Shown: positions 1-16,331 of the stretch, one piece after another
Position numbering within the stretch: the stretch's first letter is position 1
Layout of the letters: each line of letters opens with the position of its first letter
DNA from: Anaerolineae bacterium
GTDB taxonomy: Bacteria > Chloroflexota > Anaerolineae > S140-20
Direction of reading: 5' to 3'
DNA length: 64,000 nt
Assembly (NCBI GenBank): GCA_027021705.1
Contig: JALUTT010000008.1
Location: 1 to 64,000 of the forward strand
Program-made: the position numbers and the translations under genes
The notes under the pieces: model-generated
Told to the model about the DNA's origin: nothing
Database searches by the model: none
The model's input: the letters and a program-made list of their open reading frames with translations, nothing else

Positions 1-2
1 GC

Positions 3-116
3 CCGCTGGAGTTGGCCGGCTACGACATCAGCCAGGTGCCGATGGCTTCCCTTTGCGCCGGCCTGAGCGTTGTCTGGCCTTTGGAGGCAACTCAGAATGA
101 TGTCCCAAACTCGTGA
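3..116 (+). CDS. Possible 3' end of a CDS entering the window (PLELAGYDISQVPM...NS*)
   Basis: Open frame from the window edge to TGA at 114-116 with GC3-rich codons early on; product not identifiable. Confidence 0.3.
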   Translation, partial: PLELAGYDISQVPMASLCAGLSVVWPLEATQNDVPNS

Positions 117-223
117 CGGTCGCTCCCTGCCCCTTTTGCACTGGGCCAATTTGGGGTATAATAGGTTACACATCAACGCACACCGAAACCTAATGGGAGA
201 GACTGAGGAGGAGGCAACATCCT

Positions 224-751
224 ATGAGCGATCTCTACGAACAGGTCAGCCAGGAACGGGGAAAATTGGAATCCCTTCTAGGACAGATTCCTGGGTACAG
301 GGGCTACAAAGAGAAGGAGATGCGGCGGGAGGCGGACAAGCTGCTGCGCGATACCATCGCCCGTCGGCTGGAGGAGCAGCGGCGACGACTGCCCGACCTC
401 CAGAAGCGACTGCTCAGCGGTGGGGGCATCACGTGGCTTGACGACGTGGAAAGCGCGCAGATGAAGCTCCAGACCTTCATTGACCGGGTCAAGACGGCCA
501 CCTATGGCTACGCAGGCTTCTTTGACGCCGTGCGGGTGAAGGAGGATGCCTTGGACGAACTCTACACCTTCGACGAGGCGCTGCTCGCCACCGTGGACGA
601 GATCCGGGCGGCCATTGACGGTCTGGAGGCCGCCATCGGCACTCCCGACAAACTGGGGGAGGCGATCGCCGCGCTGAACCGGGCAGCGGCCAAGGCCAAC
701 GAGACCTTCGAGCGCCGGGCCGACGTGATCACGGGAACAACCGAACTCTGA
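224..751 (+). CDS. Conserved hypothetical alpha-helical protein
   Basis: GGAGG RBS before ATG; helical 175-aa sequence with IPGYRGYKEKEMRREADKLLR; 19 bp upstream of the SPFH gene. Confidence 0.8.
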   Translation: MSDLYEQVSQERGKLESLLGQIPGYRGYKEKEMRREADKLLRDTIARRLEEQRRRLPDLQKRLLSGGGITWLDDVESAQMKLQTFIDRVKTATYGYAGFFDAVRVKEDALDELYTFDEALLATVDEIRAAIDGLEAAIGTPDKLGEAIAALNRAAAKANETFERRADVITGTTEL

Positions 752-770
752 CCGGAGAGGAGGGTGCATT

Positions 771-1805
771 ATGCCACGAGTGATTGACGTTATCGAGTTC
801 ATGGATGAGACAGGAGAGGAGATGGTCCACCGAATCCCGGAGCGAGGGCCGGGGGATTTTCGCATCGGCTCTCAGGTGATCGTCCGGGAGAGCCAAGCAG
901 CCGTTTTCTTCCGGGATGGGAAGGCTTACGATGTCTTCGGACCAGGACGCCATACCATCACCACGGCCAACCTGCCGTTGCTCAGCGGCCTTCTGGGGCT
1001 GGCCACCCGAGGACGTCCCATCTTCCAGGCTGAGGTCTACTTCGTCAGCACCCGCCAGTTTCTCGACCAGAAGTGGGGAACACCGGAGCCTATCACCCTC
1101 CGGGATAGCGATCTGGGGATGGTGCGGCTGCGAGCCTTTGGCACCTATGCGATGCAGATTAAGGACCCTCAGCTCTTTGTCAACCGGATTGTGGGAACCC
1201 AGGGGTTCTACGAGACCCGCCAGATCGAAGGGTTCCTGCGGGGGATCATCATCAGCAAGCTGACCGACCTGTTGGGAGAGATCGGGAAGTCCATCTTGGA
1301 CTTGCCGGCCCTCTTCGAAGAGATCGGCGCGGGCCTCAAGGCCAAAGCTCAGGATGACTTCGCCGCCGTGGGCATTGACTTGCGGGCCATCTACATCAAC
1401 TCCATCAGCCCCACGGAGGAGACGGCCAAGGCCATCGAGGAACGGGCGGCGATGGGGGCCATTGGCGATATGCAGCGCTACATGCAGTTCCAAGCAGCCC
1501 GAGCGATGCGGGATGCGGCCCAGCAGCCCGGCGGTGTTGCCGGTGCCGGGGTCGGACTGGGCGCGGGCGTTGGGATGGGTGCGGCGATGGCCCAGATGAT
1601 GGCCCAGTCCATGCAGCAGCCGGCTCAACAGCAGCCGGCCCAACAGCAACCCCAAACCCAGAGCGGTGGCGTCACCGACATCGCCAAGATCCAGGAGGTG
1701 CTGGACAACCTGGATATGCGGCTGGCTGCCGGCGAGATCAGCGAGGAGACCTACAACCGGCTCTACGCCAAGTGGGAAGCCAAGCTAAAGGAATTGGGAG
1801 GCTGA
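771..1805 (+). CDS. SPFH/Band-7 domain protein (YdjI-like) with C-terminal SHOCT-like domain
   Basis: GSQVIVRESQAAVFFRDG, PGRHTITTANLP, KWGTPEPI..RD, LRAFGTY motifs; Gly/Ala-rich linker; GEISEETY tail. Confidence 0.85.
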   Translation: MPRVIDVIEFMDETGEEMVHRIPERGPGDFRIGSQVIVRESQAAVFFRDGKAYDVFGPGRHTITTANLPLLSGLLGLATRGRPIFQAEVYFVSTRQFLDQKWGTPEPITLRDSDLGMVRLRAFGTYAMQIKDPQLFVNRIVGTQGFYETRQIEGFLRGIIISKLTDLLGEIGKSILDLPALFEEIGAGLKAKAQDDFAAVGIDLRAIYINSISPTEETAKAIEERAAMGAIGDMQRYMQFQAARAMRDAAQQPGGVAGAGVGLGAGVGMGAAMAQMMAQSMQQPAQQQPAQQQPQTQSGGVTDIAKIQEVLDNLDMRLAAGEISEETYNRLYAKWEAKLKELGG

Positions 1806-1827
1806 GTCGAAGGATCGGCTCTTGGAT

Positions 1828-1856
1828 GCAGGGGCGGGCTTGCTACCCGCCCCTGC
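1828..1856 (+). terminator. GC-rich hairpin after the SPFH gene
   Basis: GCAGGGGCGGG / CCCGCCCCTGC perfect 11-bp stem followed by TGGTTTGT. Confidence 0.6.
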
Positions 1857-1860
1857 TGGT

Positions 1861-1889
1861 TTGTCAAAGCAGGGGCGGGTTGCTATAAT
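1861..1889 (+). promoter_or_regulatory. Sigma70-type promoter
   Basis: TTGTCA-N17-TATAAT with extended -10 TG. Confidence 0.75.
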
Positions 1890-1895
1890 CCTTTC

Positions 1896-2070
1896 GTTCG
1901 CCTGGCAAGAGCCCCTCGCTGACGTGTTGCTACCTCTCCGGCTGCTGGCTGGGCGCTGAACCGCTTGATGGAGCGGGGAAAGCTCTCCTTTGCCCGCCGG
2001 CGCAGCCAATGGTGGCCTGCGGGAGAGCGTCGCTGGTGTGGAAAAGCCCTCGAGTGACCCAGGGCCTTCT
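1896..2070 (+). ncRNA. Candidate structured RNA (rod-like hairpin; 6S-like or leader)
   Basis: Follows a strong promoter; nested complementary segments GCCTGG/CCAGGGC, GACG..CTCTCC/GGAGAGCGTC, TGGCTG/CAGCCA, GCGCTG/CGGCGC, GCGGG-AAAG/CTTT-CCCGC. Confidence 0.35.
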
Positions 2071-2072
2071 GA

Positions 2073-3242
2073 ATGGGAAAGGGAGGTCATGGGGCGAAAG
2101 GAGAGGGAAATTTGATTGCAGACCGGTTGGGGCAGGAAGAGGAGGTGGTACTGACCGCTTCCTCGGAACTCAGGCAGAAAGACCTGGATGCTCTGCTGAT
2201 CTACAACCCCACGGCTGGTCCTCGCGATGTGCGGCGGGAGTTGGATCGGGTCATCGGCTACCTGGAGCGTCGAGGATGGCAGGTGGCCCTGCGGGAGACG
2301 ACAAAGACGGGGGATGCAACCCTTTTCGCCCAGGAAGCGGTGACCGCGCGCTGCAAGGCCGTCTTCGTCGCCGGCGGTGACGGCACCATCAACGAAGTCG
2401 TCAACGGACTGGTCGGAAGCTCGGTGGCAATGGGCGTGCTCCCCGTGGGCACGGGGAACGTCTGGGCCAAGGAACTGGGGCTGCCGACCTACACGCTCAC
2501 CCATCCCGGCCGGTTGGTGGAGGCCGCTCAGCGCCTTTCTGACGGCGACGTGCGCTGGGTAGATGTGGGAAAGGCAGGCTCCCGCTACTTCCTGCTCTGG
2601 GGAGGCGTCGGGATAGATGCTGAGGTCACCTTCTTCCTGGAACCCCGCCCCCGCCGCACCAAGCGTCTGGGAGCACTGGCCTACTTGGTCGCCGGCCTGA
2701 TGGTCGCCCGCGATTTCCAAGGGGTGCGCACCACCGTCATCGTGGACGACCGGACCATCCGCACCCGCACCATCCTCATCCTGGTGAGCAACATCCAGCT
2801 CTACGGGGGGCTGGTGCGCATCACGCCGGAGGCACGACTGGACGACGGGTTGCTGGACGTGCGCATCTTCAAGGGGGTGGGACTCCGTTGGGTGCTCCGC
2901 CACGTCGTCGGTGTCTTCACCAGCCGTCACCTGCGCGATCCCAAAGTGGTCCACTTTCGTGGCCGACGGGTGGCCGTCTACACGGCGGAGCCGGCACCCG
3001 TCCAGGTAGATGGCGAGCCCATCGGCACAACGCCCATCCTCTTCGAGGTGGTTCCCCGCGCCTTGCGGGTTCTGGTGCCCCGCGATGTCTCCCCACGCCT
3101 CTTCTGCCACGGCGTGGATGGGCAGTTGGCCTTCGCTACCCAGGCAACACCCCCGCCTCGCTTCCCCTGGCTGGCCGAGCGGCTGACCTGGGTCCGGGAG
3201 CTGACCGGCTGGTTCTCCGACTGGCGTTCTCTCATCCCCTGA
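2073..3242 (+). CDS. Diacylglycerol kinase-family lipid kinase (YegS/BmrU-like); true start may be slightly downstream
   Basis: NPTAG, GGDGTINEV, PVGTGN, GVGIDA, NIQLYGG, QVDGE motifs. Confidence 0.9.
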   Translation: MGKGGHGAKGEGNLIADRLGQEEEVVLTASSELRQKDLDALLIYNPTAGPRDVRRELDRVIGYLERRGWQVALRETTKTGDATLFAQEAVTARCKAVFVAGGDGTINEVVNGLVGSSVAMGVLPVGTGNVWAKELGLPTYTLTHPGRLVEAAQRLSDGDVRWVDVGKAGSRYFLLWGGVGIDAEVTFFLEPRPRRTKRLGALAYLVAGLMVARDFQGVRTTVIVDDRTIRTRTILILVSNIQLYGGLVRITPEARLDDGLLDVRIFKGVGLRWVLRHVVGVFTSRHLRDPKVVHFRGRRVAVYTAEPAPVQVDGEPIGTTPILFEVVPRALRVLVPRDVSPRLFCHGVDGQLAFATQATPPPRFPWLAERLTWVRELTGWFSDWRSLIP

Positions 3243-3267
3243 CTCGACCCTGCTGGGAGGCTGTGCG

Positions 3268-4314
3268 ATGCGCTACGTCAACCTGCTGCTGATCTTCGTC
3301 CCCCTCGCCATCCTGGGAGAAACGCTGGAATGGTCCCCCACGTTGGTCTTCACAGCCTCGGCGCTGGGGGTGATCCCCCTAGCTGGCCTCATCGGGGAAG
3401 CGACCGAGGAGTTGGCCGCCCACACGGGGCCGCGCGTCGGTGGGCTGCTGAACGCGACCTTGGGCAACGCAGCCGAGTTGATCATCAGCCTCTTCGCCAT
3501 CCGGGCCGGGCTGCTCACCCTGGTCAAGGCGTCCATCATCGGCTCGATCCTGGGCAACCTGCTGCTGGTGACCGGGGCGAGCGTATTGCTGGGCGGGCTG
3601 CGTCACGGGGTGCAGCGCTTCGACCGGGCTCAGGCCGGCCTCAACGCCACGATGCTCATCCTGGCCGTCGTCGCCATCAGCGTCCCCTCCCTCTTCAGCC
3701 ACGCCATCGAGCCCAACCATCAGGCGGTGGAGGGGCTCAGCCTGGGCGTCTCCGGCGTCATGATCGCCATCTACGGAATGGGGCTCTTCCACACGCTGCG
3801 GGCCCAACCCTCCGACCCGGCGCTCCGAGAGGCGGCCCACGCGCCTGCCTGGTCGGTGCGCAAAGCTCTCATCGTGTTGGCCGCTGCCACCGCCGCCATC
3901 GCTTGGCTCAGCGAGGTCCTCGTCGGCTCGGTGGAGGCGGTGGTCGCCCACCTGGGTTGGACCGAGTTCTTCCTGGGCATCATCATCATCCCCCTCGTGG
4001 GGAACGTGGCCGAGCATCTGGTGGCGGTGCAGGTCGCCCTCAAGGATCAGATGGAGTTGAGCCTCTCCATCTCGCTGGGCTCCAGCCTCCAGATCGCCCT
4101 CTTCGTCGCCCCGCTGCTCGTCTTCGTCAGCCTGGCGATGGGGAATCCGCTGACGCTGGTCTTCGACCAGTTCGAGCTGATCGCGATGGTGGGGTCTTCC
4201 CTCGTCGCGGCCTTGGTGGCCCTGGATGGGGAGTCCAACTGGCTGGAGGGGGCTCAACTCCTGGCGGTCTACACCATCTTGGCGCTGGCCTTTTTCTACC
4301 TGCCAGCGCCCTGA
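3268..4314 (+). CDS. cax: Ca2+/H+ antiporter (CAX family)
   Basis: GNAAELI and GNVAEH alpha-repeats, GSSLQIAL, DGESNWLEG. Confidence 0.95.
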   Translation: MRYVNLLLIFVPLAILGETLEWSPTLVFTASALGVIPLAGLIGEATEELAAHTGPRVGGLLNATLGNAAELIISLFAIRAGLLTLVKASIIGSILGNLLLVTGASVLLGGLRHGVQRFDRAQAGLNATMLILAVVAISVPSLFSHAIEPNHQAVEGLSLGVSGVMIAIYGMGLFHTLRAQPSDPALREAAHAPAWSVRKALIVLAAATAAIAWLSEVLVGSVEAVVAHLGWTEFFLGIIIIPLVGNVAEHLVAVQVALKDQMELSLSISLGSSLQIALFVAPLLVFVSLAMGNPLTLVFDQFELIAMVGSSLVAALVALDGESNWLEGAQLLAVYTILALAFFYLPAP

Positions 4315-5852
4315 TCCCGGCGGTCCTTCCAGCGCAAGAGCCGCAGCCCCTCCAGGCGCAGCACCTCCGGGAAGAGGGTCTTGTAGACGCGACAGTAGGG
4401 GGAGGGGCGGTCACTGCGGCCTGTGAGCCGATGGGTGAGGAGGGGGCAGCCCCCGGCGCACCAGTAGCGCCACGGGCAGGCGCGGCACCCCTCCCGCTGC
4501 TCCACCGGCAGGTTCTGAAAGCCGCCGTTGACCACCCGCAGGGAGGTGAGGGGGTCTTCGGTCCAGACGTCGGTCACCGGGTGCTCGATCTCCATCTGGC
4601 AGCGGGCGATCTGTCCTCGGGGGTCTACCACCAGGTAGGCGTGGCCGACTCCGCAGGGGTAACGGTGGGGCGCGGCCAGGCTGACCCGGTCCAGGAGGCC
4701 GGCGATGAGGCTGTAGGGGGGCAGGCGCTCTTCGATCACGGCCAGGGCCTGCCGGAGGGCGGCGATCAACCGGTCTTCATCCGGGGTCAGGGGGACAAGA
4801 GGTGTCCCTCGGCCCGTCCCCCGGTAGAAGTTCAGGTTGAAGAGCAGCCCCCGGTCCAGGGCGAAGGCCACCGCCTCGGGCAAGCTCTCGGCGTTGTGGG
4901 CGGTGACGGTGATGGAGAGGTGGGGACGGAGGCCTCGGGCCAGGGCTCGGTCTATAGTGCGGGCGACCCGCGCGGCGCTCCCCCGGCCGCCGACGAAGGG
5001 GCGTTGGGCGTCGTGGGCCGGCCCATCCCAGGAGATGGCGAGGCGGATGGCGGCATCGCGGAGGAAGTCCAGCATCCCGTCGTCGAGGCGGGTTCCGTTG
5101 CTCAGGACCACCTCCTGCAGGCCAAGCCCCGTCTGCCGGGCTAGGGCCAGGGCCTCCCGATGCAGGGTCTGAAGGAGATCGAAGTGAAGGGTCGGCTCGC
5201 CACCGGCGTACTTGAGCTTGACCGCCGAGAAGCTGTGGCGCTGGGCCGTGCGGAAGACAGCCTGCAAGGCAGCGCGGCCTGTCGCCACGTCCATCGTCTC
5301 GCCGGTGAGGCGGAGGTAGCAGTAGGTGCAGGCCAGGTTACAGGCACTGGTCAGATGGAGCCAAGCGGTCAACGTGGTGGGGGGTGAGGCCGGCAGCGCG
5401 GGGGATGGGGTCCTCCCCTCCGTCGGCTGGAGCAGGTTCAGCGCGGACAGGTGGTCAACCGCCCGGTGGAAGGCGTCGGTGGCCAGACCGGGCAGGCGAG
5501 GGAGGACCTGGGCCGGGGTGGCGGGGAGGGCGAAGGCGTCGAGGATATGGGCTGCCGTCCGGTTGAGCACGACGACAGCGGCCGGCCCCAGCGGTTGGAA
5601 GACCACTTCGTGACGGTCGGGCAGGGCTGCCCGGTAGAGGCCAGAGGCCCGCTGCCGGCGCACTCCTCTCCCGACAGGAGAGGCCAGGAGGACCGCCTCC
5701 CTCCCATCAGGACAGGCGCAATCGTCCTCTATGGCCTCGGCCTGGAGCGAAGGGAGGACGACCACTTCACCCGTCCCGTCGGGACAGGCGCAGTCCTGTT
5801 CACCCCTTTCCTCAAATGCCAACCAGTTCCACAGAATCACAGGACCGTTCAT
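4296..5852 (-). CDS. Radical SAM/SPASM protein with PqqD/RRE-like region and N-terminal twin DCACPDG motifs
   Basis: CNLACTYC; YAGGEP; SPASM Cys pattern CGVG...C...CRACPWRYWCAGGC...YC; LNRTAAHILD...L..LNLL RRE-like segment. Confidence 0.9.
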   Translation of the reverse strand: MNGPVILWNWLAFEERGEQDCACPDGTGEVVVLPSLQAEAIEDDCACPDGREAVLLASPVGRGVRRQRASGLYRAALPDRHEVVFQPLGPAAVVVLNRTAAHILDAFALPATPAQVLPRLPGLATDAFHRAVDHLSALNLLQPTEGRTPSPALPASPPTTLTAWLHLTSACNLACTYCYLRLTGETMDVATGRAALQAVFRTAQRHSFSAVKLKYAGGEPTLHFDLLQTLHREALALARQTGLGLQEVVLSNGTRLDDGMLDFLRDAAIRLAISWDGPAHDAQRPFVGGRGSAARVARTIDRALARGLRPHLSITVTAHNAESLPEAVAFALDRGLLFNLNFYRGTGRGTPLVPLTPDEDRLIAALRQALAVIEERLPPYSLIAGLLDRVSLAAPHRYPCGVGHAYLVVDPRGQIARCQMEIEHPVTDVWTEDPLTSLRVVNGGFQNLPVEQREGCRACPWRYWCAGGCPLLTHRLTGRSDRPSPYCRVYKTLFPEVLRLEGLRLLRWKDRRDQGAGR

Positions 5853-6336
5853 CCCACGCCTTCTCCTCTTGTCTGTTCCCCCAGATCATCTCCAACCGTT
5901 CCCCATCCCGTTCACCCTGGACGACGAAGCCGCAGCGGGCGAAGAGGCGCTGGGCCCGAAGGTTCTCCCGATGGGTGGTGAGTCGGATGCGCCGCACCCC
6001 ACGCTCGCGGGCCCAGCGGAGGGCCTGTTGGAGCATCTTTTTCCCGATCCCCCGACCCCGGTAGGGGGCGAGCAACCCGATGCCCAGCTCGACCTCCGGG
6101 GACCACCGTCCGACGCGAGGGGGGAAGAGACGGCACCAGCCGATCACCCGGCCTTCCACCTCGCCCACCAGGAGGAGGTGGTAGGGGCAGTGAGGGAAGT
6201 GCAAGGCGTGGAGCCAAGCCGGTGTCGGCTCGAAGCGCCGCGTGCGCATCCAGGGGCTCTCCTGACAGACCGCCCCGATCAGGGTGACCAGGGCCACGTG
6301 GTCGTCGGTGGCGAAGGGACGGATGCGGAAGCTCAC
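5812..6336 (-). CDS. GNAT family N-acetyltransferase
   Basis: ELGIGLLAPYRGRGIG acetyl-CoA motif, N.RAQRLF..CGF; GTGA overlap with the upstream TPR gene. Confidence 0.9.
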   Translation of the reverse strand: MSFRIRPFATDDHVALVTLIGAVCQESPWMRTRRFEPTPAWLHALHFPHCPYHLLLVGEVEGRVIGWCRLFPPRVGRWSPEVELGIGLLAPYRGRGIGKKMLQQALRWARERGVRRIRLTTHRENLRAQRLFARCGFVVQGERDGERLEMIWGNRQEEKAWDERSCDSVELVGI

Positions 6337-9300
6337 CCCACGGCCTCCTCGTAGGCTTCGGGCAGGCCGAAGTACTCCTCCAAGAGCTGCCGGGCCGGGT
6401 TCTCATCGAGCCGGCACTCCCGCTCGACCTGGCGGGCGGTTTCGTAGGCCAGGCGGAGCTCGGCCGGGTTCATCCCCTTCAGGTTCTGGTAGAAGAGGTC
6501 CTTCCCCCGGCGCAGGTCCCGGAAGTCGGGGGCGTACAGCACGTCGTGAGCCAGGGCCAGGGTGAAGTGCTCCACGCCTTTTCTCAGAAGGTCCTGGGTT
6601 GCGTCCAGAGCCTCCTCGCGGCTCTTCCCTTCCGCCCGCAGGCGCTCGTAGGCGCTGCGAAAGCGGTCCATCGCCATCAGGGCCAGCAGCATGTGGGCCT
6701 TGCCGATCTGGACCCAGAAGAAGGCCGGGGAGAGGTCGCGGCGGGGCACGCCGCGCTCCGGGGTGATGAAAAAGTCTGCCGGAAGGGACTGGAAGACCGC
6801 TTCAACGGTCTCTTCTGCCCTCTCCGGTCGGCCGGCGTAGAAGTAGAGCCAGGCCAAGTTCACCAGGGCATCCACCCGGAGGTGGGGAAAGGTCTTCCCC
6901 GCCTCTTCGGCGGCCCGCTGCAGCGTACGCTCGGCCCGCAGGGCTATCTCCTCCTGTTCCGTTGCCTCCAGCGTGGACGCCAGAGGATGGATGCGAACCC
7001 AATCCCGGTAGATGCAGCCCAGTTCGATCCGAGCTTCGATCAGACGGGAGCGCTCTTTTACCTGATCGGTAAAGATGGTGATGGCCTCGTCGGCCAGGCG
7101 CCGGGCCTCGTTGAGCAGTTCTGCCTGGGTCTTAGACGTATACCGGTAGGGGATCCACGCCTTGCGACGCAAAGCCTCGGCTAGGGCGCGGGAGGCCAGA
7201 CCAGCACCGCGCCAATTCCCTAGCTCAGAGAAAATGGCCAGGGCCTGTCGGGCCAGCTCCTCGGCCTGATCGGGCTGGTCGTTGCGGAGTTGGATCATCG
7301 CCAGGGTGTTCAGGCTGAGGGCAATGGGGTAGCGCAGTCCCAACCGCTGCCGGATCTCCAGGGCATCCTGGCAGAGCCGGATGGCCTGACCGAACTTGCC
7401 CGTCTCGGCCAGGGCCCAGGCCAGGTTGTTCAGCGTGTTGGCCGCCTCGCTCTCGAATCCGGGTCCGAGGGCCCGCCACAGGGGAAGGGCGCGACGGTAC
7501 TGCTCGACCGCCTCTTGGAAACGGCCCCGCACCCGCAAGAGATAACCCAAGTTGTTGTAGGCGTTGGCCAGCAGTGCTCGCCGTTGGTCCCTCTCAAAAG
7601 GGGTGCGGGGCTGCAGCCGGGCCAGGGCCTCAATGGCTCCCCGCAGCCGCTCCTCGGCCAGGTCCAGGTCCTGACCAGCGTAAGCGCGGGCCCACCCCTC
7701 CCAGACGGAGAGCTCGGCCTCCGCTACCGGTCCTAACCGCTCCATCAGATCGGCGGCTTCGGCGCGGAGGCGGGCGGCGATCTGCACCGCCTCGTCGTAC
7801 CGGGCGAAGACGATGGAGCGCTTGATCCATCGGACGCCCAGGTCCCAAGCTGCCCGATCGGCAATGACCTTCCTCGCTTCCTCGGGAGCTTGCTCCAGGA
7901 ATTCCAGCAATTCGACCCGAAGCTGCATATCCAAAGCCCTGTGGTAGGCGCGAAAGGCCTCGTCGGCAGCCCGGTAGTAGGTCTCAAAGCCCTGCTCGGG
8001 GTCCCGGCGCAGGGCGTAGTGCACCCGCTCGGCGATGGCGTTCTGAAGCCGGACGCGGGTTCGCTCCAGTCGGTCGAGGGGGGCTTCCGGGTCCGCCTGA
8101 AGCCGCCGCAACTCTCGACGCGCCTCCTTGATCTCTTCGTCGTAGAACCGAAGGATGGTGTCGTAGACCCACCGAGCTCGCGCCTCGGGCAGCCGGCTCA
8201 AAACGTGGCGCTCCAGCAGGGCGTACATCTCGTCCTGGAGGAAGACCCGGTTGTCGGCAGGGCGGACCTTGACGAAAGAGAGGGGGCGCAAGCTCTCCAG
8301 CAGTCGTTCCGCTTCCTCCTTGGTGGTCTCCAGGAGCCGGGCCAGCAGCCGGGCGTTCATCCCCCGCCGGGTCCAGGCCAGGGCCCGGACCGCTTCGTCG
8401 GCCGGCCGACCCGTCTCCTGGATGGCCCGGACGATCTCCCTCTCGAGTCGCTCCCGAACCTGCCGGAGCTGGTCGGGACTCATCGCCCGAGCCTCCTCCA
8501 GGGGGGTCTGGACCTTGGGGAGCAGCCGATCGGCGACGGCCAGGTAGTCAATGGTCAGGGCCAGCAGGATGGGCCGCCCCTCCGTGTAGAGGTGGATCAC
8601 CCGCCGGGTTTCTTCAGGGATCGCCTCCAGGCGGGCTGCCACCACCTCGCTCCCCTGTTCCCGGGCCACCTGGGCCACGGTCTGGAAGTAGTCCAGACTG
8701 TCGGGCTCCTCTAGCGGTCCCAGGGTGCGCTCGATGAGCCGCTCCCCTAGGGCGGCCCGCAGGTCTTCCCGCAGACGAGGGGGGCCGGGGCGGCCAGCGA
8801 TCAGGACGATGGTGTTCTCAAGAGAAGGGAGAAAGCGCTCGATCAGCCACCCCCGGGCCTCGATCCCCTGAGGGGCCAGCGCCAGCGACTGCTGCACCGG
8901 GTCGGGCTCGTAGAGAAGGACCTCGGCGGTGTCGAAGGCCAGCACCACCCGGTAGTCATCCTCCAGGCTGCGGAAGTCCTCCTGGAAAGCGCGGAGCATC
9001 CGATCCTCCTGCCAGCCGATGTCCCGGAGGTCCAGGTCTCGCCGGATCCGGGCCAGCCGTTCCCGTTCCTGCTGAAAGTCGGCGAAGTAACCCAGGCCGG
9101 GCCGGAGCACCGCCCGGATGGCCCGACATAGCCCTTCCACTGCATGGACAGGGGGGCGGTAAAGGTCCACCACATCTTGGGCGGCCAGGACCTCCGGTTC
9201 GCTCCAGGAGCCCTCCCGAAGGCGGCGCAGCACCTCCCGCAGCAGGAAGGTCTTGCCCATCCCGCCCTGGCCGGTGATGTAGAAGACGTAAGGGGCCCCC

Positions 9301-9401
9301 CGGTCCCTTACCGCCTTTCGGATCTCGTTGAGGATGGGTTCCCGGTTGATCAGCTTCGGCGTTGCCCAGACACCGGTATAGTCCAACACTCCCCTTATCA
9401 T
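6333..9401 (-). CDS. STAND-like P-loop NTPase with C-terminal TPR array
   Basis: Walker A GQGGMGKT, Walker B VVLAFDTAE, GRPILLAL (GxP), TPRs ANAYNNLG / ANTLNNLA / ALSLNTLA. Confidence 0.85.
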   Translation of the reverse strand: MIRGVLDYTGVWATPKLINREPILNEIRKAVRDRGAPYVFYITGQGGMGKTFLLREVLRRLREGSWSEPEVLAAQDVVDLYRPPVHAVEGLCRAIRAVLRPGLGYFADFQQERERLARIRRDLDLRDIGWQEDRMLRAFQEDFRSLEDDYRVVLAFDTAEVLLYEPDPVQQSLALAPQGIEARGWLIERFLPSLENTIVLIAGRPGPPRLREDLRAALGERLIERTLGPLEEPDSLDYFQTVAQVAREQGSEVVAARLEAIPEETRRVIHLYTEGRPILLALTIDYLAVADRLLPKVQTPLEEARAMSPDQLRQVRERLEREIVRAIQETGRPADEAVRALAWTRRGMNARLLARLLETTKEEAERLLESLRPLSFVKVRPADNRVFLQDEMYALLERHVLSRLPEARARWVYDTILRFYDEEIKEARRELRRLQADPEAPLDRLERTRVRLQNAIAERVHYALRRDPEQGFETYYRAADEAFRAYHRALDMQLRVELLEFLEQAPEEARKVIADRAAWDLGVRWIKRSIVFARYDEAVQIAARLRAEAADLMERLGPVAEAELSVWEGWARAYAGQDLDLAEERLRGAIEALARLQPRTPFERDQRRALLANAYNNLGYLLRVRGRFQEAVEQYRRALPLWRALGPGFESEAANTLNNLAWALAETGKFGQAIRLCQDALEIRQRLGLRYPIALSLNTLAMIQLRNDQPDQAEELARQALAIFSELGNWRGAGLASRALAEALRRKAWIPYRYTSKTQAELLNEARRLADEAITIFTDQVKERSRLIEARIELGCIYRDWVRIHPLASTLEATEQEEIALRAERTLQRAAEEAGKTFPHLRVDALVNLAWLYFYAGRPERAEETVEAVFQSLPADFFITPERGVPRRDLSPAFFWVQIGKAHMLLALMAMDRFRSAYERLRAEGKSREEALDATQDLLRKGVEHFTLALAHDVLYAPDFRDLRRGKDLFYQNLKGMNPAELRLAYETARQVERECRLDENPARQLLEEYFGLPEAYEEAVG

Positions 9402-9403
9402 TT

Positions 9404-9941
9404 GAGCGTGACCAAAAGCTGTTGAATCACTGAGCAACTGAAAGAAATGAGCTCACTGAGGAGTTATGCACCCCCTCCCCGGCGTCGGGTCACGGCCTTG
9501 CCGACGACCTGGGCCGCACTGCCCAAGGCTCAGTGTCTTCATCTCCTTCAGTACTTCAGTGATTCTGGGGGTTTGGTTGGCGGACGGACAAGCTGTCAAC
9601 GGATTGGGGAACGGATAGCTGTCAACGGATTGGGAACGGATTGAACGGATTTGGAACGGATGGGGTGGTGCTCCCAAGAGGGCTTGTCCAGATCTTCGCA
9701 CCGCTTCGTGCTCTTTGAGCTCTTGGTGTCCTTCGTGTCTCTCGCCGTGGCCGGAGCGGACGAGCTGTCAACGGATTGGGGAACGGATTGAACGGATGGG
9801 GGACGACGGCTCAGTGTCTTCACTTCCCTCAGTGCGTCAGTGATTCTGAGGGCTTTTGGACCGAGCGTGATCGGAGGCTGTTGGGGGAAAGATGCAGGGG
9901 CGTTGCGCTTCTACCGCCTCCAACCCATTTTGGTCACACTC
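9404..9941. mobile_element. Non-autonomous IS256-like element (MITE) filled with short repeats
   Basis: TIRs GAGCGTGACCAAAA (9404-9417) / TTTTGGTCACACTC (9928-9941); perfect 9-bp direct repeat TTATCATTT at 9395-9403 and 9942-9950; no transposase inside. Confidence 0.8.
9424..9846. repeat. Nested short repeat families inside the MITE
   Basis: 37-bp GAATCACTGA..CACTGAG unit at 9424-9460 with inverted copies at 9529-9565 and 9810-9846; AGCTGTCAACGGATT units at 9591, 9617, 9763; CTTCGTG..TCCTTCGTG unit ~9703-9737. Confidence 0.8.
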
Positions 9942-9983
9942 TTATCATTTCGTATCTGGTGGGTTGGCGGGTGGGAATAGGGA

Positions 9984-11156
9984 TCAACAGCCCTCGGGCG
10001 CGTATCCGGCCTGGCGGAGGGCCTGGGCGTGGTAGTCGGCTTCGGCGGCCCAGCGAGCCCCGGTCTGGGGGTAGGCCTCGGCCCAGGAGCGGTAAAGCTG
10101 ATAAGCGGCGCAGTGGAGGCGCTGCCAGCAGCGGGGGTCCCGCTCCCGGAGGTGCCGCTCCAAGAGGGGGCGGACCGCTTCGTCCACCACGTACCCTCCG
10201 CGCTCCGAGTCCCAGTGGGTCAACGCCGTGTCGAGGAGGTGATCCCGGACTTCCCGGGCTTCCTTGTACCCCCACCGCCGATACCTATCGTCTTCGTAGT
10301 AAGCTGCCAGCATCACCCGGATCTGGTCCTCGGTGAAGAAGCGGAGGGGGCAGAGAGCCTCCAAGTAGGTCCGTGCTTCGGGTTCGACGTGGTCCAGGAT
10401 CACCTCGATGACGGCGGCCAGATCGTCTCCGGTGGCCAACAGGTAGTTGGCCAGGGGGTAGCCCCGCGACCGCTGCTGAATCTGAGGGGCCTGACCGGCC
10501 TTACCGGGCACCTGGCGCTCCAACTGGGCTTTCGTCGTCTCCACGTCGAAGGGGGCCAACGTCCGCTCTTCGACGTAGAGGCGCAGCTCCGGCGCGACCC
10601 AGGGGTAGGGCTTGCCCCGACCGGCCAGCACCAACAGCACCCGGGGCAGGGTGGCCAGGGGGGCCAGCAGCCGGCGCTCCAGTTCGGCCAGGAGAGCCTC
10701 GTCGGCCTCGTAGACATGGTCCACCAGCAGCACCAGCGGGGTCCGGTGAACCAACCGCTCCACATCCTGCCGCAGAAACCGGCTCAGATCGTCCAGGGGG
10801 ACGTCCCCCCCTTGGGGGACCAGAGGGTCGGCCCCCTGCCACCGGGCAACCTGCTTCCCCAGGGCGCGGATCAGGTCGGCGACCTGGTGCCAATCGAGGA
10901 GGCTGAGGTAGACGGCGTGAGCTCCCGTACCCTCCAGTCGGTTCCCTGTCGGATGGTCGGATGGGGGAAGGGTCACTTCGGCCAGATGGCGCAACAGCCA
11001 GGTCTTGCCGCTCCCTCGCTCGCCGGCGAAGATGATGGTGCGCCGTCGCACTACCTGGTTCCCACCGATCTCCCGCGCCCTCCTCACCACCAGGTTGATC
11101 TCCTGCTCCCGGTTGACGAAGCGCTCGGGATGGTAATCAGGTATCCCATCGTTCAT
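9984..11156 (-). CDS. STAND-like P-loop NTPase (AAA_16-like), no obvious effector domain
   Basis: RFVNREQEI, Walker A GERGSGKT, Walker B LVLLVDHVYE, RGYPLA (GxP); GGAGGT RBS. Confidence 0.85.
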   Translation of the reverse strand: MNDGIPDYHPERFVNREQEINLVVRRAREIGGNQVVRRRTIIFAGERGSGKTWLLRHLAEVTLPPSDHPTGNRLEGTGAHAVYLSLLDWHQVADLIRALGKQVARWQGADPLVPQGGDVPLDDLSRFLRQDVERLVHRTPLVLLVDHVYEADEALLAELERRLLAPLATLPRVLLVLAGRGKPYPWVAPELRLYVEERTLAPFDVETTKAQLERQVPGKAGQAPQIQQRSRGYPLANYLLATGDDLAAVIEVILDHVEPEARTYLEALCPLRFFTEDQIRVMLAAYYEDDRYRRWGYKEAREVRDHLLDTALTHWDSERGGYVVDEAVRPLLERHLRERDPRCWQRLHCAAYQLYRSWAEAYPQTGARWAAEADYHAQALRQAGYAPEGC

Positions 11157-11230
11157 GCTCACCTCCCGCCGTCGCCTCTCCAATCCCTGCCCAGGATCAA
11201 CCTGGGGGAGGGAGAAGGGGACTCCATCGG

Positions 11231-12580
11231 CTACGATGACGTCCCCTTGCTCACATTCTGCTTCCCTCCGGCCCCTGCCGGGTCACTGCCCTCGGCGGAC
11301 TGCCGGGCGTACCAGGCCAGGGCTGCCTCCAGGTCCTCCGACGAAAGGCGGCCCTCCGGCCCTGCCCGGAGGATGTGCTCCAGGAAGAGCCGCTCCGCGA
11401 CCAGGAGCAGCTCCCGAGGGTAGGGCCGGACCTCGTCCACCAGCCTCTCATCGGCATCGTACAATCCCGGATCACCCAAGGCCCCCAACCGGTCGAACCG
11501 ACCTTGACTGGCCGCCAACAGCCGCTGGCGCAAGAGGGCCAAGAGGGACGAACGATTCCACGCTATCATAGCAACTCTTGGCTCCGGTGTCAAGAGCTCC
11601 TCGACCCTTTCTTGCCAGGGCCTCGCTTCCTGAGGCAGGAACGCCTTCAGAAAGGCCCCTGGAGCCCGATCGTTCCATTGGCGGAGGAGGTGTAGGAGGG
11701 GGGCCAGGACCTCCGCGATCCGGTCCGGGCGGTTCAGCGTCTCCGGGTAGGCGTCCACCCCGTCCAGGAGCAAGTAGACCGCCTGATAGCCCAGGAGGTC
11801 GGTGAGCAACTCATGTAAGCTCTGCCAGCGGCTGTCGGCATCCTGTTGAGAGGAGGGGGCGGTGGAGAGACTTTCGGCCAGCGCAGCTTTCAGCCGTTGA
11901 AGGCGCCGAGCTGTGGGCGGATTCGCCATCGTGAAGGTGGGATCATACCCTTCCCCCAGCACGGAGAGGTCTTGGGCTGTCTGCACGGAGGCCAGGAGGT
12001 GGGTCGGCGGTGTGGGGAGGTTGTGGGCAAGCCAGGAAGCCAGGCGGCGGCGTTGAGAAGGCGGGAGGTCCAGGTAACGTTCAGGGCGGTAAGCAAGGGT
12101 CAAAAGCAACTCCAGCGCTGCCGCCTCTAGGATCGTCTCCCGATAGCTCCGCCGCCGATCCGGGGGAGCCGCCTGCACGACACGCTCGGGGAGCGTGTAG
12201 ACAATGGGGAAGATACGCCGCCCGTCCCGACCGGCCCGGCAGGCGTGGGCCAGCCAGACGCGGAAGGCGCTCTTCCCTCCCCTGGCGGGGGCGAAGACCA
12301 GCGACGGCCAGTCTCCCCAAAGGATCTCCAGCACCTGGTGTCCGACCAAGTACTGGCTCAGCCGAGGATCGGCAGCAGCATCCAGAACGCGAAAGGGATC
12401 GAAAGCCAGGCCAAAGGAAGCCAGCCAGCGGTCAATCTGCGCTTCTGGTGAGTCAGGCGCTTGTTCAGAGAGGTCTGCCGGCGTCGGACGGGAGGTTGAG
12501 TTAGAGGATGGATCATCTTGGAATAAGGCTCTCATCACCCGCTCACATACACTACCATCTTCTGCGTGTAAAGACCACAA
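11231..12580 (-). CDS. Divergent STAND-like NTPase (paralog of 12730-14121 and 14284-16179); N-terminus uncertain or decayed
   Basis: FGL..DPF...A..D..L motif, deviant Walker A APARGGKS, VYLLLDGVD, W....L..LL..RL, YPRELL. Confidence 0.75.
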   Translation of the reverse strand: MWSLHAEDGSVCERVMRALFQDDPSSNSTSRPTPADLSEQAPDSPEAQIDRWLASFGLAFDPFRVLDAAADPRLSQYLVGHQVLEILWGDWPSLVFAPARGGKSAFRVWLAHACRAGRDGRRIFPIVYTLPERVVQAAPPDRRRSYRETILEAAALELLLTLAYRPERYLDLPPSQRRRLASWLAHNLPTPPTHLLASVQTAQDLSVLGEGYDPTFTMANPPTARRLQRLKAALAESLSTAPSSQQDADSRWQSLHELLTDLLGYQAVYLLLDGVDAYPETLNRPDRIAEVLAPLLHLLRQWNDRAPGAFLKAFLPQEARPWQERVEELLTPEPRVAMIAWNRSSLLALLRQRLLAASQGRFDRLGALGDPGLYDADERLVDEVRPYPRELLLVAERLFLEHILRAGPEGRLSSEDLEAALAWYARQSAEGSDPAGAGGKQNVSKGTSS

Positions 12581-12729
12581 AGTGAATACTCAAGACCTAG
12601 GATGAGTTGATAGGCGGCGCTGGCTCATCCCGGGGACCCTATCGTAGCCTGAAGATCCAGACGGTATTGTGTAGTTGCTTTGCAAGAAGCTCATCCTTGG
12701 CTCGCGGCAACCTCACCCCAACCTCACCC

Positions 12730-14121
12730 TCACCAAGCATTCTCCAAGCGCACACCTTTACCCTTGACCGTCACCACCAGGACCGGGTTCTTGGGGTCCG
12801 GCTCCAGGACCTGGCGGAGACGCCAGAGGGCGGTATCCAGCGTGCCGGCGTACTCGGCGGGGCGGGCATCGGGGTCCCCGTGGCTGCCGGGGTACGCGCT
12901 CACGTACTGCAGGTAGAGGGGCCGACGGTGGCAGACCGTCCCCCGGTGGCGGTAGAGGAAGCGGAGCATCGCCTCTAGGCCGGGGGCCAGGTCCTCCACC
13001 CGCCGCCAACCGACGGTCACTCGGCCTGTCTCCTCGTCGAAGAAGAGACGCGGGGGGTGGCGTCGCTTGATCTCCTGGGATGTGTCGGGGGAGAGGGGCC
13101 GAGGCCGACCCTCCTGCTCCGTCTGGGCCAAGTAGGCGGCCAGGAAGGGGCGGGTGAACTCCAGCCACCCTTTGGGTACCTCGCCGCCGCAGCGGGCCAG
13201 CCACGTCGTCAGCTTCCTATCCCGACTCAGGTCCCGGAGGGTGAAGCCGGGGAGGCCCAAGGCCAGGGAGAGACGGGCCTCGACGATGGCGATCAGGTCC
13301 TCTCGCCGCCATTGGATCCGGTAGACCTCCACCCGCCGCCGGGCGACGGCCCCGGCCGACCAGAGGGAGGACTCCAACTCGGCGGGGAGGAAGAACTTGT
13401 AGGCAAAGCGCGGGTGCTCGAAGAGGGCCAGGGTGGAGAGGAAGGCCTGAAGGCTCTCTACCAGCCGGTCCGGGTTCATCTCCAACCAGGGGGTGACGTC
13501 GTCCATCAGCACGCGGACCCCCTCGATCCCGAGGGTGCGGAGCGCCTTCGTCAATTCGGCCACCACCAGCATCGGGGGGGCTTGGGAATGGAGCAGATCC
13601 CGAGACGGGGCCTGGAGGATCTCGCGGAGCAGGGCTCGGCCTTCCACGGGGGCTTCGGTCCCGGCCGTGGCAACGGCGTGCTCCAGATCCCCCTGGAAGT
13701 ACCGGTGTAGGAACCAGACCAGCGTTTCGTGGGCCCAGGGGGGGGCTGCCCCCCACCTCGCCAGATGGCGGGCCAGGTACTCCAGCAGGCTGCGGGCCAC
13801 GGCGTCCATCACCTGGTTCCGCAGGACGATCACCAGGTCGGTGCCGGCAAGGTCAGGCTGGAAGAGCAGGCTCACGGGCCAGGGGACGAGGAGCCAGCGG
13901 GGGGGAGTTCCTGGGGGGTTCCATCGGCGCATCAGGGCCAGGCGCAGCGCCGTCTTGCCGCTGCCCACGTCGCCGAAGATGAGGGCGGATCGGGCGCCGG
14001 CGATGAGGGGAAAGTCTCGAGGCGGCACGTAGCAGTCGCTCAGCCAGGGTTCATCCTCGGCCCGCAGGCTATCAAAGGCGGCCAAGCCCAGGGGTTCCTG
14101 CATCGCTGCTTCTGAAGCCAT
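12730..14121 (-). CDS. STAND-like NTPase with C-terminal OmpR/PhoB-type winged-helix domain
   Basis: AFDSLRAEDE, Walker A GDVGSGKT; C-terminal LDTALWRLRQVLEPDPKNPVLVVTVKGKGVRL; AAGGAG RBS before ATG 14121. Confidence 0.85.
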   Translation of the reverse strand: MASEAAMQEPLGLAAFDSLRAEDEPWLSDCYVPPRDFPLIAGARSALIFGDVGSGKTALRLALMRRWNPPGTPPRWLLVPWPVSLLFQPDLAGTDLVIVLRNQVMDAVARSLLEYLARHLARWGAAPPWAHETLVWFLHRYFQGDLEHAVATAGTEAPVEGRALLREILQAPSRDLLHSQAPPMLVVAELTKALRTLGIEGVRVLMDDVTPWLEMNPDRLVESLQAFLSTLALFEHPRFAYKFFLPAELESSLWSAGAVARRRVEVYRIQWRREDLIAIVEARLSLALGLPGFTLRDLSRDRKLTTWLARCGGEVPKGWLEFTRPFLAAYLAQTEQEGRPRPLSPDTSQEIKRRHPPRLFFDEETGRVTVGWRRVEDLAPGLEAMLRFLYRHRGTVCHRRPLYLQYVSAYPGSHGDPDARPAEYAGTLDTALWRLRQVLEPDPKNPVLVVTVKGKGVRLENAW

Positions 14122-14135
14122 CTTCACGCTCCTTG

Positions 14136-14274
14136 CCACGGACCGCCGACCGCCGACTGCGGACCACGGCCTCGCCCACTCGTTGCCTCATCGCCTCGAT
14201 GTCGACCGCTGACCACGGACCGCCGACCGCCGACTGCGGACCACGGCCTCGCCCATTCATTGCCTCATCACCTC
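14136..14274. repeat. 62-bp direct repeat pair built from 7/8-mer units
   Basis: CCACGGACCGCCGACCGCCGACTGCGGACCACGGCCTCGCCCA... at 14136-14197 and 14213-14274 (3 mismatches). Confidence 0.85.
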
Positions 14275-14283
14275 ATTGCCTCA

Positions 14284-16179: not shown

Positions 16180-16302
16180 CGGTGCCCCCTTCCGCCTTTC
16201 AGCACATAAAGGCTATGACGAGCACGCAGATTAAGCGGACGCGCCCCTCAGGGGACGGTGTGGTTTAGCGTGGTGGTGAGAATCCTGTGAGGTTCCCACC
16301 AT

Positions 16303-16331
16303 AGCTTAGCATATCCGGCCCCGCTTGTCAA
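16303..16331 (-). promoter_or_regulatory. Putative promoter of the NTPase cluster
   Basis: Minus strand TTGACA-N17-TAAGCT with extended -10 TG. Confidence 0.6.

Follow-up and report, generated by a model that had tools for sequence, protein, structure and literature searches.

The stretch of DNA analyzed here (the window) comprises the first 64,000 nucleotides of contig JALUTT010000008.1, from an Anaerolineae bacterium. Near one end lies the gene of a radical SAM (rSAM) protein in which a short N-terminal tail with two cysteine-containing modules precedes an RRE-type domain, the catalytic core and a SPASM region. A GNAT ORF, the gene of a STAND ATPase with TPRs and those of three further P-loop ATPases are located upstream (Table 1). 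The Rfam search of positions 1-17000 returned no match.

Table 1. Features of the rSAM gene and of its neighborhood, in window coordinates.
Feature	Position	Strand	Basis
Gene of the 518-aa protein (tail, RRE, radical SAM, SPASM)	4296..5852	-	ORF call; PF04055
Shine-Dalgarno-like stretch, AGGAGAAGG / GAGGAGAAGG	5859..5868	-	About 7-16 nt 5' of the ATG; read from the sequence
N-terminal tail, residues 1-55, two tandem precursor-like modules	5688..5852	-	Repeat logo, conservation, dN/dS
Module 1 recognition strand, P4-V-I-L-W8	5829..5843	-	Model strand at 6-8; predicted contacts to the body
Core 1, E18-Q-D-C-A-C23	5784..5801	-	Sequence and repeat logo
Module 2 degenerate recognition strand, V30-V-V-L-P34	5751..5765	-	Logo register against P-x-[IV]-L-W; not confidently placed in the models
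Core 2, E42-D-D-C-A-C47	5712..5729	-	Aligns with the sole copy of one-repeat homologs
RRE-type domain, residues 73-137, with three strands followed by three helices	5442..5636	-	DSSP of the model
Radical SAM cluster motif, C171-x3-C175-x2-C178	5319..5342	-	Invariant columns
SPASM region, C400, C418, C456, C459, C465, C469, C487	4392..4655	-	Seven invariant Cys
STAND P-loop ATPase and TPR protein, 1034 aa	6333..9437	-	AAA_16 29-172, TPR_12/TPR_1 623-697
AAA_16 / ORC-Cdc6-like ATPase, cluster c4	9984..11183	-	Domain scan; 8/21 loci
Sll1717-like / NACHT-like P-loop ATPase, cluster c5	11231..12580	-	Domain scan; 7/21 loci
P-loop ATPase with C-terminal winged helix of Trans_reg_C type, cluster c3	12730..14139	-	Domain scan; 10/21 loci

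The ATG of the rSAM gene lies inside the GNAT ORF (5812..6336), with an overlap of 41 nt, and in-frame GTG and TTG codons are present downstream of it, such as the GTG at V64. Both features would fit a real start 3' of the motifs, the upstream frame being open fortuitously. Against this, 113 of the 120 best homologs retain the motif within the frame, the dN/dS of the tail is well under 1, a Shine-Dalgarno-like stretch is found 5' of the ATG, and in most other loci the rSAM ORF begins tens of bases past the stop codon of the STAND-TPR gene, without any GNAT. The proposal of an untranslated tail is close to refuted and is given hardly any credence. The ATG at 5852, with the motifs inside the reading frame, was retained on this evidence, and the sequence comparisons support a tail that is translated, conserved and selected at the protein level.

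The initial annotation had described the N-terminal region as bearing twin CX3D motifs. The second one, DDCACPDG, corresponds to residues 43-50 at 5703-5726 as reported; the first one, QDCACPDG, is present at residues 19-26 and spans 5775-5798, the interval of 5775-5795 given there covering DCACPDG only. Three synonymous sites within the shared DCACPDG (GAC/GAT, CCC/CCT, GAC/GAT) confirm that identical amino acids are encoded by differing codons. The selection at the protein level that had been deduced from them is indeed found, and it is purifying: the six pairs among L053, L054, L062 and L063 that are not saturated give a dN/dS of 0.11-0.29 in the tail, compared with 0.09-0.12 in the body. 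Each DCAC motif is paired with its own hydrophobic recognition strand, a feature missed in the initial annotation. A module consists of about 24 residues, with a P-x-[IV]-L-[W/Y/F] strand and, some 11 residues on, an E-x-D-C-A-C core.

The CACPD region and its copy number were followed through the best 120 of about 1900 homologs. A module precedes CxxxCxxC in 113 of them, as one to three copies (none in 7 sequences, one in 43, two in 65, three in 5), and the most frequent spacing is 24 residues (46 of 75 intervals). In a logo of 183 repeats, the core is nearly fixed, with C0 in 183, A in 182 and C2 in 183, preceded by E(-3) in 169 and D(-1) in 173; the strand is less so, with P(-15) in 142, L(-12) in 113 and W(-11) in 95. 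In the 113 sequences, C45 and C47 are invariant, while D44 and A46 are at least 90% conserved. Among genome loci, acidic-Cys motifs are found upstream of the RRE in all of the top 30 (L001-L030). In 28 of these loci the motifs are in frame within the ORF, in one (L005/L032) they directly follow a stop codon, and in one (L022) a frameshift separates them. The motif takes the form DCAC, DCDCAC, three DCR, DCGC or [DE]C...[DE]EC, a variation from locus to locus that suggests a precursor-like region. When 25 single repeats from genome loci were aligned, only ExDCAC survived and the resulting profile was too weak to search a library with. Several homolog records carry the names Anaerolineae or Ardenticatenaceae. 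Taken at the level of sequence, the composition of the tail supports its likeness to a precursor peptide, with a recognition strand and a cysteine core in one to three tandem copies.

The CX3D reading itself is borne out in part. An Asp or Glu occupies position +4 from the first cysteine in 121 of 188 repeats, or some position from +3 to +7 in 147 of them, and both copies in the window read C-A-C-P-D. However, the near-invariant acids are the two that lie N-terminal to the cysteines, and more distant relatives retain only acidic-Cys dipeptides, [DE]-C.

Downstream of the tail, the RRE-like segment, the CxxxCxxC core and the SPASM domain that had been announced are all present. The radical SAM domain PF04055 matches residues 167-317 (E 1.2e-14), and C171, C175 and C178 do not vary among 113 sequences, nor do the seven cysteines of the SPASM pattern (C...C, CX2CX5CX3C, C). 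The Pfam scan for PqqD at E <= 0.01 gave no match. In the model, the RRE is built of strands 73-77, 81-85 and 93-96 and helices 98-105, 113-119 and 125-137, in a region with pLDDT >90; V95, L96, N97, A100 and L104 are nearly invariant. The closest fold in the PDB is that of CteB (5why/5wgg, E 4.5e-21), which is also matched by sequence profile (1.9e-37). Membership in the nif11-maturase, PapB, QhpD and SCIFF (CteB) equivalog families was rejected, as the NCBIfam scores of 120.2, 107.7, 98 and 70.5 are far under the respective cutoffs of 518.7, 340, 453 and 425. The spacing of the SPASM cysteines nearly equals that of CteB (C344/C362/C400/C403/C409/C413/C432, as given in passages of PMC10177961). 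The same passages describe for CteB, PapB and Tte1186 an auxiliary cluster 1 held by three cysteines, to which the Cys or Sec of the substrate binds. The catalytic body is most similar to CteB, in which this set of seven SPASM cysteines implies that auxiliary cluster 1 has only three of them.

Residues 1-10 of the window protein were modeled by AlphaFold2 with a pLDDT of 82 and form a strand at 6-8. This N-terminal strand recurs in the one-repeat homolog P0030 and is confident in both members folded, while the cysteine cores have low confidence, with block means of 29-64 in the window protein and 52-55 in P0030. The complex between the tail (residues 1-60) and the body (61-518) was predicted in the presence of SAM and three 4Fe-4S clusters. 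Scores of 0.77, 0.76 and 0.77 were obtained, versus 0.01 for the best of three controls. In a calibration, 116 of 157 solved complexes attained the score mark, as did 2 of 215 mismatched pairs; these counts apply only approximately here since the complex run, unlike the calibration, used a custom alignment and small molecules. The runs share at least 27% of their contacts, with a partner pLDDT of at least 37. The predicted interface brings residues 1-10 of the tail against residues 81, 91, 93-100, 103, 122-138, 381 and 501-509 of the body, the closest pairs being 4-7 with 94-100; the cysteine cores lie outside the confident interface. Leader recognition sequences usually form a β-strand on β3 of the RRE, as stated in the portion of PMC12710340 concerned. 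In the models, the P-x-I-L strand is predicted to dock in a leader-like manner on β3/α3 of the enzyme's own RRE. The complex score measures likeness and not binding, and may reflect the memory that the model has of solved RRE-leader complexes.

When the complete 5.19-Mb genome was translated in six frames (10.38 million residues), E-x-[DN]-C-A-C had two matches, both in the rSAM ORF, and [DN]CAC had 13. The view that there is no separate precursor gene, which had been based on the vicinity of the enzyme, is thus upheld at the scale of the genome for this motif. In place of a separate small precursor of the PapA type, the window and the loci examined have the motif within the ORF of the enzyme itself. 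A word-index search with residues 1-75 among proteins of 30-283 aa returned 24 word-sharing candidates, none with E <= 10. The phmmer search of residues 1-55 against 1.84 billion representatives produced five matches at E <= 0.001. Four of them (P0121, P0123, P0124 and P0125) were discarded as standalone precursors, being low-complexity repeat proteins without the DCAC motif. The fifth, P0122, is a standalone protein of 116 aa with four DCACPDGAKVIL-type repeats, whose period equals that of the fused tail; it is a singleton on one 2650-nt contig. Related-locus searches of genome and metagenome contigs for its context retrieved fused rSAM genes and chance matches only. Standalone forms of the peptide are nearly absent, this singleton being the one candidate.

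The conserved partner of the rSAM gene, overlooked in the initial annotation, is that of the STAND ATPase-TPR protein. Of 21 loci, 20 have this gene, encoding about 1000 residues, adjacent to that of the rSAM enzyme, and so do all eight further rSAM-bearing loci that cover the upstream region (L051, L052, L054, L058, L060, L061, L062 and L063). A SIR2-like protein is encoded near the rSAM gene in one clade. The adjacent GNAT had been put forward as a possible tailoring enzyme. This role was dismissed because the gene is not conserved, tblastn finding no match to it in any of 77 other loci. No conserved peptidase or transporter was found among the gene clusters of the 21 loci, which argues against a classical RiPP pathway; a modified tail would for the same reason probably stay on the protein. 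Assignment to a known anti-phage system was also rejected. With the PADLOC models, the matches were generic only, one to TPRs and one to pVip that spans the radical SAM core (E 1.6e-17), and the scores with NCBIfam DS41_1 are 47.8-60.3 for a cutoff of 370.

CteB, PapB and Tte1186, of the ranthipeptide and SCIFF type, share with the present protein an N-terminal RRE, a radical SAM core and a seven-Cys SPASM region with near-identical spacing, together with a substrate-like part rich in Cys and Asp/Glu. In those systems, however, this part is encoded by a small gene of its own, as a precursor whose leader is N-terminal, whereas here it is fused to the N-terminus of the enzyme, its conserved acids come before the cysteines, and family scores are far too low. 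The genetic context recalls the FxSxx systems, in which peptide processing by an rSAM-SPASM enzyme is coupled to an AP-ATPase(STAND)-TPR protein (Kaur, Burroughs, Iyer, Aravind 2020, PMC7159879). According to parts of that article, they occur in multicellular or filamentous phyla including Chloroflexi, and the peptide is proposed to be a signal or a toxin within a conflict system. The adjacency of an rSAM-SPASM gene to a STAND NTPase with C-terminal TPRs is common to both, while the separate precursor ending in FxSxx and the zincin-like peptidase described there have no counterpart in the conserved clusters, the Pfam-scanned window neighbors or six other neighbor ORFs. The TPR protein scores 43.6 with the FxSxx_TPR model (cutoff 300), and vWA-MoxR genes are absent from the window neighbors scanned.

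Borosin N-methyltransferases and plant BURP-domain cyclases carry a core peptide and its modifying enzyme in one polypeptide, and BURP proteins have repeated cores N-terminal to the catalytic domain. The present protein likewise joins a core-like peptide to an enzyme, a fusion shown by its sequence. The borosin and BURP enzymes belong to unrelated families with unrelated chemistry (SAM methyltransferase, copper cyclase), and none of them is known to be a radical SAM enzyme or to use an RRE. In methanogenic archaea, CrpC introduces ranthionine cross-links into the Cys-rich protein CrpA (PMC13692751). CrpC likewise combines an RRE with a radical SAM core and a SPASM domain, and its thioethers go into a protein-sized substrate instead of a short secreted peptide; however, its substrate CrpA is not part of the enzyme but a protein of its own, the system is archaeal, and the abstract mentions no STAND partner.

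The best explanation appears to be a natural enzyme-precursor fusion that is modified at its cysteines and works with the STAND system, a reading held with slightly better than even confidence. The enzyme would be a peptide-modifying radical SAM/SPASM protein of the CteB/PapB kind, with its own N-terminal 55 or so residues as a built-in precursor. The recognition strand would pair with β3 of the RRE, as a leader does, allowing the flexible core to reach the active site, in cis or in a neighboring subunit. There, a core cysteine thiolate may bind the iron left open in auxiliary cluster 1, which would have three Cys ligands, and the 5'-deoxyadenosyl radical may abstract a hydrogen from a side chain close by, most probably that of an Asp or Glu, forming a thioether with a loss of 2 Da per link. 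It is presumed that the modified tail is retained and acts with the STAND ATPase-TPR protein and the further P-loop NTPases, and we infer a role inside the cell, in signaling or conflict, and not that of a secreted natural product. The order of residues counts against self-modification, as the near-invariant acids precede the cysteines and only 121 of 188 repeats have an acid at +4. The Glu, the Asp and the two cysteines would serve equally well as ligands of a metal site. A transposed Asp...Cys peptide was left unprocessed by PapB, as reported in passages of PMC9413430. The near absence of standalone precursors, with one singleton, counts against a substrate role.

The tail could instead be an unmodified leader or pseudo-substrate that acts in cis on the RRE, either keeping the enzyme on for a leaderless substrate in trans, or auto-inhibiting it until the STAND ATPase-TPR protein displaces the tail. 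Lanthipeptide synthetases are activated by cis-fused leader peptides, and the modeling, in which only the recognition strand is confidently docked and the cysteine cores are not, would agree with this, as would the lack of a conserved protease or exporter and the constant pairing with a large regulatory NTPase (20 of 21 loci and 8 further). It is nevertheless judged fairly unlikely. The E-x-D-C-A-C core with its invariant cysteines outranks the strand in conservation, and since it is the most conserved part of the tail, it represents more than a plug for the RRE would need. Whole modules, strand and core together, are duplicated, and the genome contains no motif-bearing candidate for a trans substrate. 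A flexible extension for binding or delivering metal or iron-sulfur clusters, in which each module would hold Zn, Fe or a cluster through its Glu, its Asp and its two cysteines, none of them modified, had been raised in the initial annotation. The invariance of the cysteines suits this idea, and pairs of an acid and a cysteine are the sole feature common to all clades. It is considered rather improbable, as copies vary from one to three and cysteine count and spacing differ by clade (CAC, CDCAC, three single DC, [DE]C...[DE]EC), an uncommon trait in a structural metal site; the models also show the motif region as disordered, and a metal tag would have no use for the strand of each motif, predicted to bind a peptide-recognition domain.

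The tail might also be mainly a short linear docking motif, a hydrophobic-Trp segment followed by an acidic one, that tethers the enzyme as an effector to the TPRs of the STAND protein. Kinesin light chain TPRs bind Trp-acidic peptide motifs, they are the nearest in sequence to those of the STAND protein (E 1.7e-14), and the gene pairing is strict. Yet the kinesin likeness says little, since bacterial STAND proteins generally have repeats of the TPR_12 type, and the strand is predicted on the enzyme's own RRE; docking as the main function is regarded as improbable. Such docking would be compatible with an enzyme-precursor fusion, the two not being exclusive.

No account of the present gene family, or of a radical SAM enzyme to which a precursor tail is fused, was found in the literature searched, although supplements may list such proteins. 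In the part of PMC10288494 concerned, "fused" and "fusion" refer to an instrument name or to fusions of RRE or MBP; "Chloroflex" has no match. Genome mining that relies on a small precursor ORF beside the enzyme is expected to miss or mislabel a family with fused tails. To our knowledge, all radical SAM RiPP systems described so far encode their precursor in a small gene of its own. If the enzyme-precursor fusion is real, it would provide a one-gene test bed in which a single expressed protein reveals the modification, the pairing of strand and RRE being already predicted residue by residue. It would also show that an enzyme can direct RiPP-type chemistry at itself, probably to some end inside the cell. 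In addition, NLR-like STAND NTPases would be linked to radical SAM enzymes that modify peptides in an architecture independent of the FxSxx systems, the second of its kind. More tentatively, as a possibility that we hold doubtful, the self-cross-linked tail may be a ligand or switch for the TPR sensor of the STAND protein, coupling SAM, redox or Fe-S status to a conflict or signaling system in Chloroflexota, with a SIR2-like effector in one clade, and would be the first natural radical SAM-precursor fusion.

The N-terminal tail of the radical SAM protein is a family-wide, repeated and selected module, combining a leader-like strand with an invariant Cys core. The twin DCACPDG motifs reported in the initial annotation, which placed the second correctly and the first with a three-base slip, are confirmed with stronger support than its author could see. 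A search at E ≤ 1e-10 gave 1947 homologs. Of the 120 best, 113 carry the motif N-terminal of CxxxCxxC (one copy in 43, two in 65, three in 5). Most of the other 7 are shorter calls starting with V or L. Successive copies are 24 residues apart in 46 of 75 intervals. In a logo of 183 repeats anchored on the first Cys, Pro occupies position −15 (142 repeats), Ile/Val −13 (123), Leu −12 (113) and Trp −11 (95), followed by Glu at −3 (169) and Asp at −1 (173, with Asn in the remaining 10). The core is Cys (183), Ala (182), Cys (183), then Pro, Ala or Ser, often followed by Asp or Glu. The unit is thus a hydrophobic strand with an acidic Cys core, and the proposed CX3D description holds only in part: an acidic residue is found at +4 in 121 of 188 repeats, but the strand and the upstream acids also belong to the unit. 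The two copies have seven common codons with three synonymous differences, and the suggested selection at the protein level is borne out by dN/dS values of 0.11–0.29 for the tail versus 0.09–0.12 for the body (six unsaturated pairs from four related loci). Judged by these ratios, the tail is translated and constrained, yet faster-evolving than the body.

Location of the tail motifs, the enzyme gene and surrounding features
Feature	Window positions	Strand	Residues	Remark
Radical SAM ORF	4296..5852	−	518 in total	
Motif 1, QDCACPDG	5775-5798	−	19-26	sequence reading
Motif 2, DDCACPDG	5703-5726	−	43-50	sequence reading
GNAT acetyltransferase	5812-6336	−		between STAND-TPR and radical SAM genes; overlaps radical SAM start by 41 nt
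STAND-TPR gene	6333..9437	−		
Intergenic gap	9437-9984			550 nt, AAA_16 gene to STAND-TPR gene; short tandem repeats at 9577-9665
Fifth P-loop ATPase	14284-16179	−	631 in total	Sll1717/ORC-Cdc6-like; upstream of cluster
PP2C/SpoIIE phosphatase, MacB-type ABC transporter genes and HlyD partner	17754-21911	−		MacB/HlyD genes at 18530-21911

A homolog at E ≤ 1e-60 occurs in 40 of 401 genomes sampled from the phylum. Acidic-Cys motifs precede the RRE in all of the 30 best loci, their detail differing by clade (DCAC; DCDCAC; DCDC...DCAC; three DCR; DCGC; [DE]C...[DE]EC). In L005/L032 the tail motif directly follows a stop codon. Tail and catalytic body are in different frames in L022 (genome G207) and L046 (G233), by frameshift or assembly error, and L022 has an additional in-gene stop. 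As far as seen, the motif peptide almost never exists as a separate protein. When all 5.19 Mb of the genome are translated in six frames, E-x-[DN]-C-A-C matches twice, each time inside the radical SAM ORF, and a word-index search found no short standalone protein with the tail peptide. An exhaustive phmmer search with tail residues 1–55 returned one relevant protein, P0122, a standalone lysine-rich protein of 116 residues with four DCACPDGAKVIL-type repeats at the ~24-residue period of the tail; this protein is represented once, on a contig of 2650 nt.

The RRE-like segment, the CxxxCxxC core and the SPASM domain recognized initially all stand. The AlphaFold2 model (mean pLDDT 88, pTM 0.89) has three strands then three helices over residues 73–137, so that this predicted fold matches the order that defines an RRE (PMC12710340). 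The radical SAM domain spans residues 167–317 (Pfam). C171, C175 and C178 are invariant in an alignment of 113 family members, as are seven C-terminal cysteines (C400, C418, C456, C459, C465, C469 and C487). NCBIfam models of peptide maturases, including nif11-type, PapB, QhpD, DynA and SCIFF, match below threshold. The nearest solved structures (Foldseek) are those of CteB (5why/5wgg, E 4.5e-21), followed by TigE and anSME; CteB is also the top sequence-profile match (1.9e-37), and the spacing of its seven SPASM cysteines is almost identical. According to PMC10177961, this pattern in CteB, PapB and Tte1186 leaves auxiliary cluster 1 with three Cys ligands only, and the substrate Cys/Sec binds that cluster.

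In the window protein model, residues 1–10 have a pLDDT of 82 with a strand at 6–8, residues 12–39 fall below 50, and the blocks that cover residues 41–60 and include the second core have means of 55 and 64. The one-repeat homolog P0030 is modelled likewise (residues 1–10 at 82, strand at 6–8, core region 52–55). Complex prediction of tail 1–60 with body 61–518, SAM and three 4Fe-4S clusters scored 0.77, 0.76 and 0.77, compared with 0.01 for the highest-scoring of three controls. Of 157 solved complexes, 116 attain the calibration mark, as do 2 of the 215 mismatched pairs; these counts are approximate here because the run used its own alignment and small molecules. Contact agreement between the runs was at least 27% and partner pLDDT at least 37. 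The confident interface joins tail residues 1–10 to body residues 93–100 (RRE β3 and start of α1), 122–138 (α3) and 501–509, with the tightest pairs between 4–7 and 94–100; V95, L96, N97 and A100 are nearly invariant. The predicted seating is canonical for a leader recognition sequence on an RRE, as described in PMC12710340. The score may reflect likeness to solved RRE–leader complexes, so it indicates that the tail resembles a leader to the model rather than proving binding. The Cys cores were placed without confidence.

Gene neighbourhoods of ±8 kb were compared around 20 of 43 genome matches, chosen for long contigs and spread, together with the window; several of the 20 loci come from the same genera and are not independent. 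A P-loop STAND ATPase of ~1000 residues with TPRs adjoins the radical SAM gene in 20 of these 21 loci. Seventeen have it directly upstream, on the strand of the radical SAM gene, and three have it downstream in convergent orientation; the stretch around L035 contains no such gene. The adjacency recurs in L051, L052, L054, L058, L060, L061, L062 and L063, every further locus with upstream sequence (L053 and L059 begin at a contig end, and some of the eight are records of the same contigs). Before the STAND gene lie P-loop NTPases with a C-terminal winged helix (10 loci), AAA_16 (8 loci) or Sll1717/NACHT-like P-loop NTPases (7 loci) and, in another clade, NACHT/AAA_16 and SIR2_2 genes. In that clade the SIR2_2 gene (L040:2407-3519 (+), E 2e-6; equivalents in L039, L043 and L046) lies two genes upstream of STAND-TPR and is followed by the NACHT/AAA_16 ATPase gene; analogy with known defence systems suggests that it may encode an NAD-consuming effector. 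PADLOC gave no defence match at family level. L036 and L037, whose enzymes carry three tail motifs (three DCR and three DCAC), are alone among the 21 loci in having two tandem STAND-TPR paralogs, a small number from related genomes.

Tailoring by the adjacent GNAT, as first proposed, is not upheld: no other locus compared has a counterpart, and the gene, specific among these loci to the window genome, was probably inserted into the operon. The idea was rejected, and the conserved partner is the STAND ATPase-TPR. No conserved peptidase or transporter was found among the gene clusters of the 21 loci, and the window's fifth P-loop ATPase, phosphatase and MacB/HlyD genes are absent from the conserved clusters. 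The gap before the STAND-TPR gene contains two kinds of repeat, one with a 26-nt unit (2.5 copies) and the other with an 11-nt AACGGATTGGG-like unit (~6 copies), with no match in Rfam.

It is somewhat more probable than its negation that the tail is a built-in substrate, cross-linked by the enzyme itself. Enzyme–precursor fusions occur in borosins and BURP cyclases. The reactive dipeptide is kept as its surroundings and copy number vary, which is the usual pattern of evolution in precursor cores. Such variability is a poorer fit to a fixed metal site, and metal binding by the tail, raised initially as the alternative, is unlikely. A mistaken start site, with the motifs upstream of the true one, is very improbable: a Shine-Dalgarno-like GAGGAGAAGG lies 7–16 nt 5′ of the ATG.

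The leader-like seating of residues 1–10 and the unconfident placement of the cores also bear on a regulatory cis-leader or pseudo-substrate, which is considered rather unlikely. The TPRs of the STAND protein (residues 623–770) are closest by sequence to those of kinesin light chain (E 1.7e-14), which bind Trp-acidic peptide motifs; the tail modules, a Trp-containing strand then an acidic stretch, recall these ligands. A TPR-docking role of the tail has a slim chance and is compatible with a built-in substrate. For the chemistry, PapB forms Cys to Asp/Glu links in CXnD (n = 0–6) and leaves a transposed Asp...Cys peptide unprocessed (PMC9413430); this failure matters because the best-conserved acids of the tail precede the Cys. 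CrpC demonstrates that a protein, too, can receive ranthionine links (PMC13692751).

The literature searched described neither this enzyme's family nor any radical SAM enzyme fused to its precursor. The nearest described logic is that of FxSxx-type systems (PMC7159879), in which a radical SAM-SPASM enzyme, together with a zincin peptidase and a small precursor, is invariably coupled to a TPR-bearing AP-ATPase, the peptide being a proposed signal or toxin in a conflict system of multicellular bacteria. Here, in contrast, the putative precursor is part of the enzyme, there is no such peptidase, and the TPR protein falls below the FxSxx_TPR cutoff (NCBIfam). The conserved STAND ATPase-TPR partner points to a role in intracellular signalling or conflict, and away from a secreted natural product.
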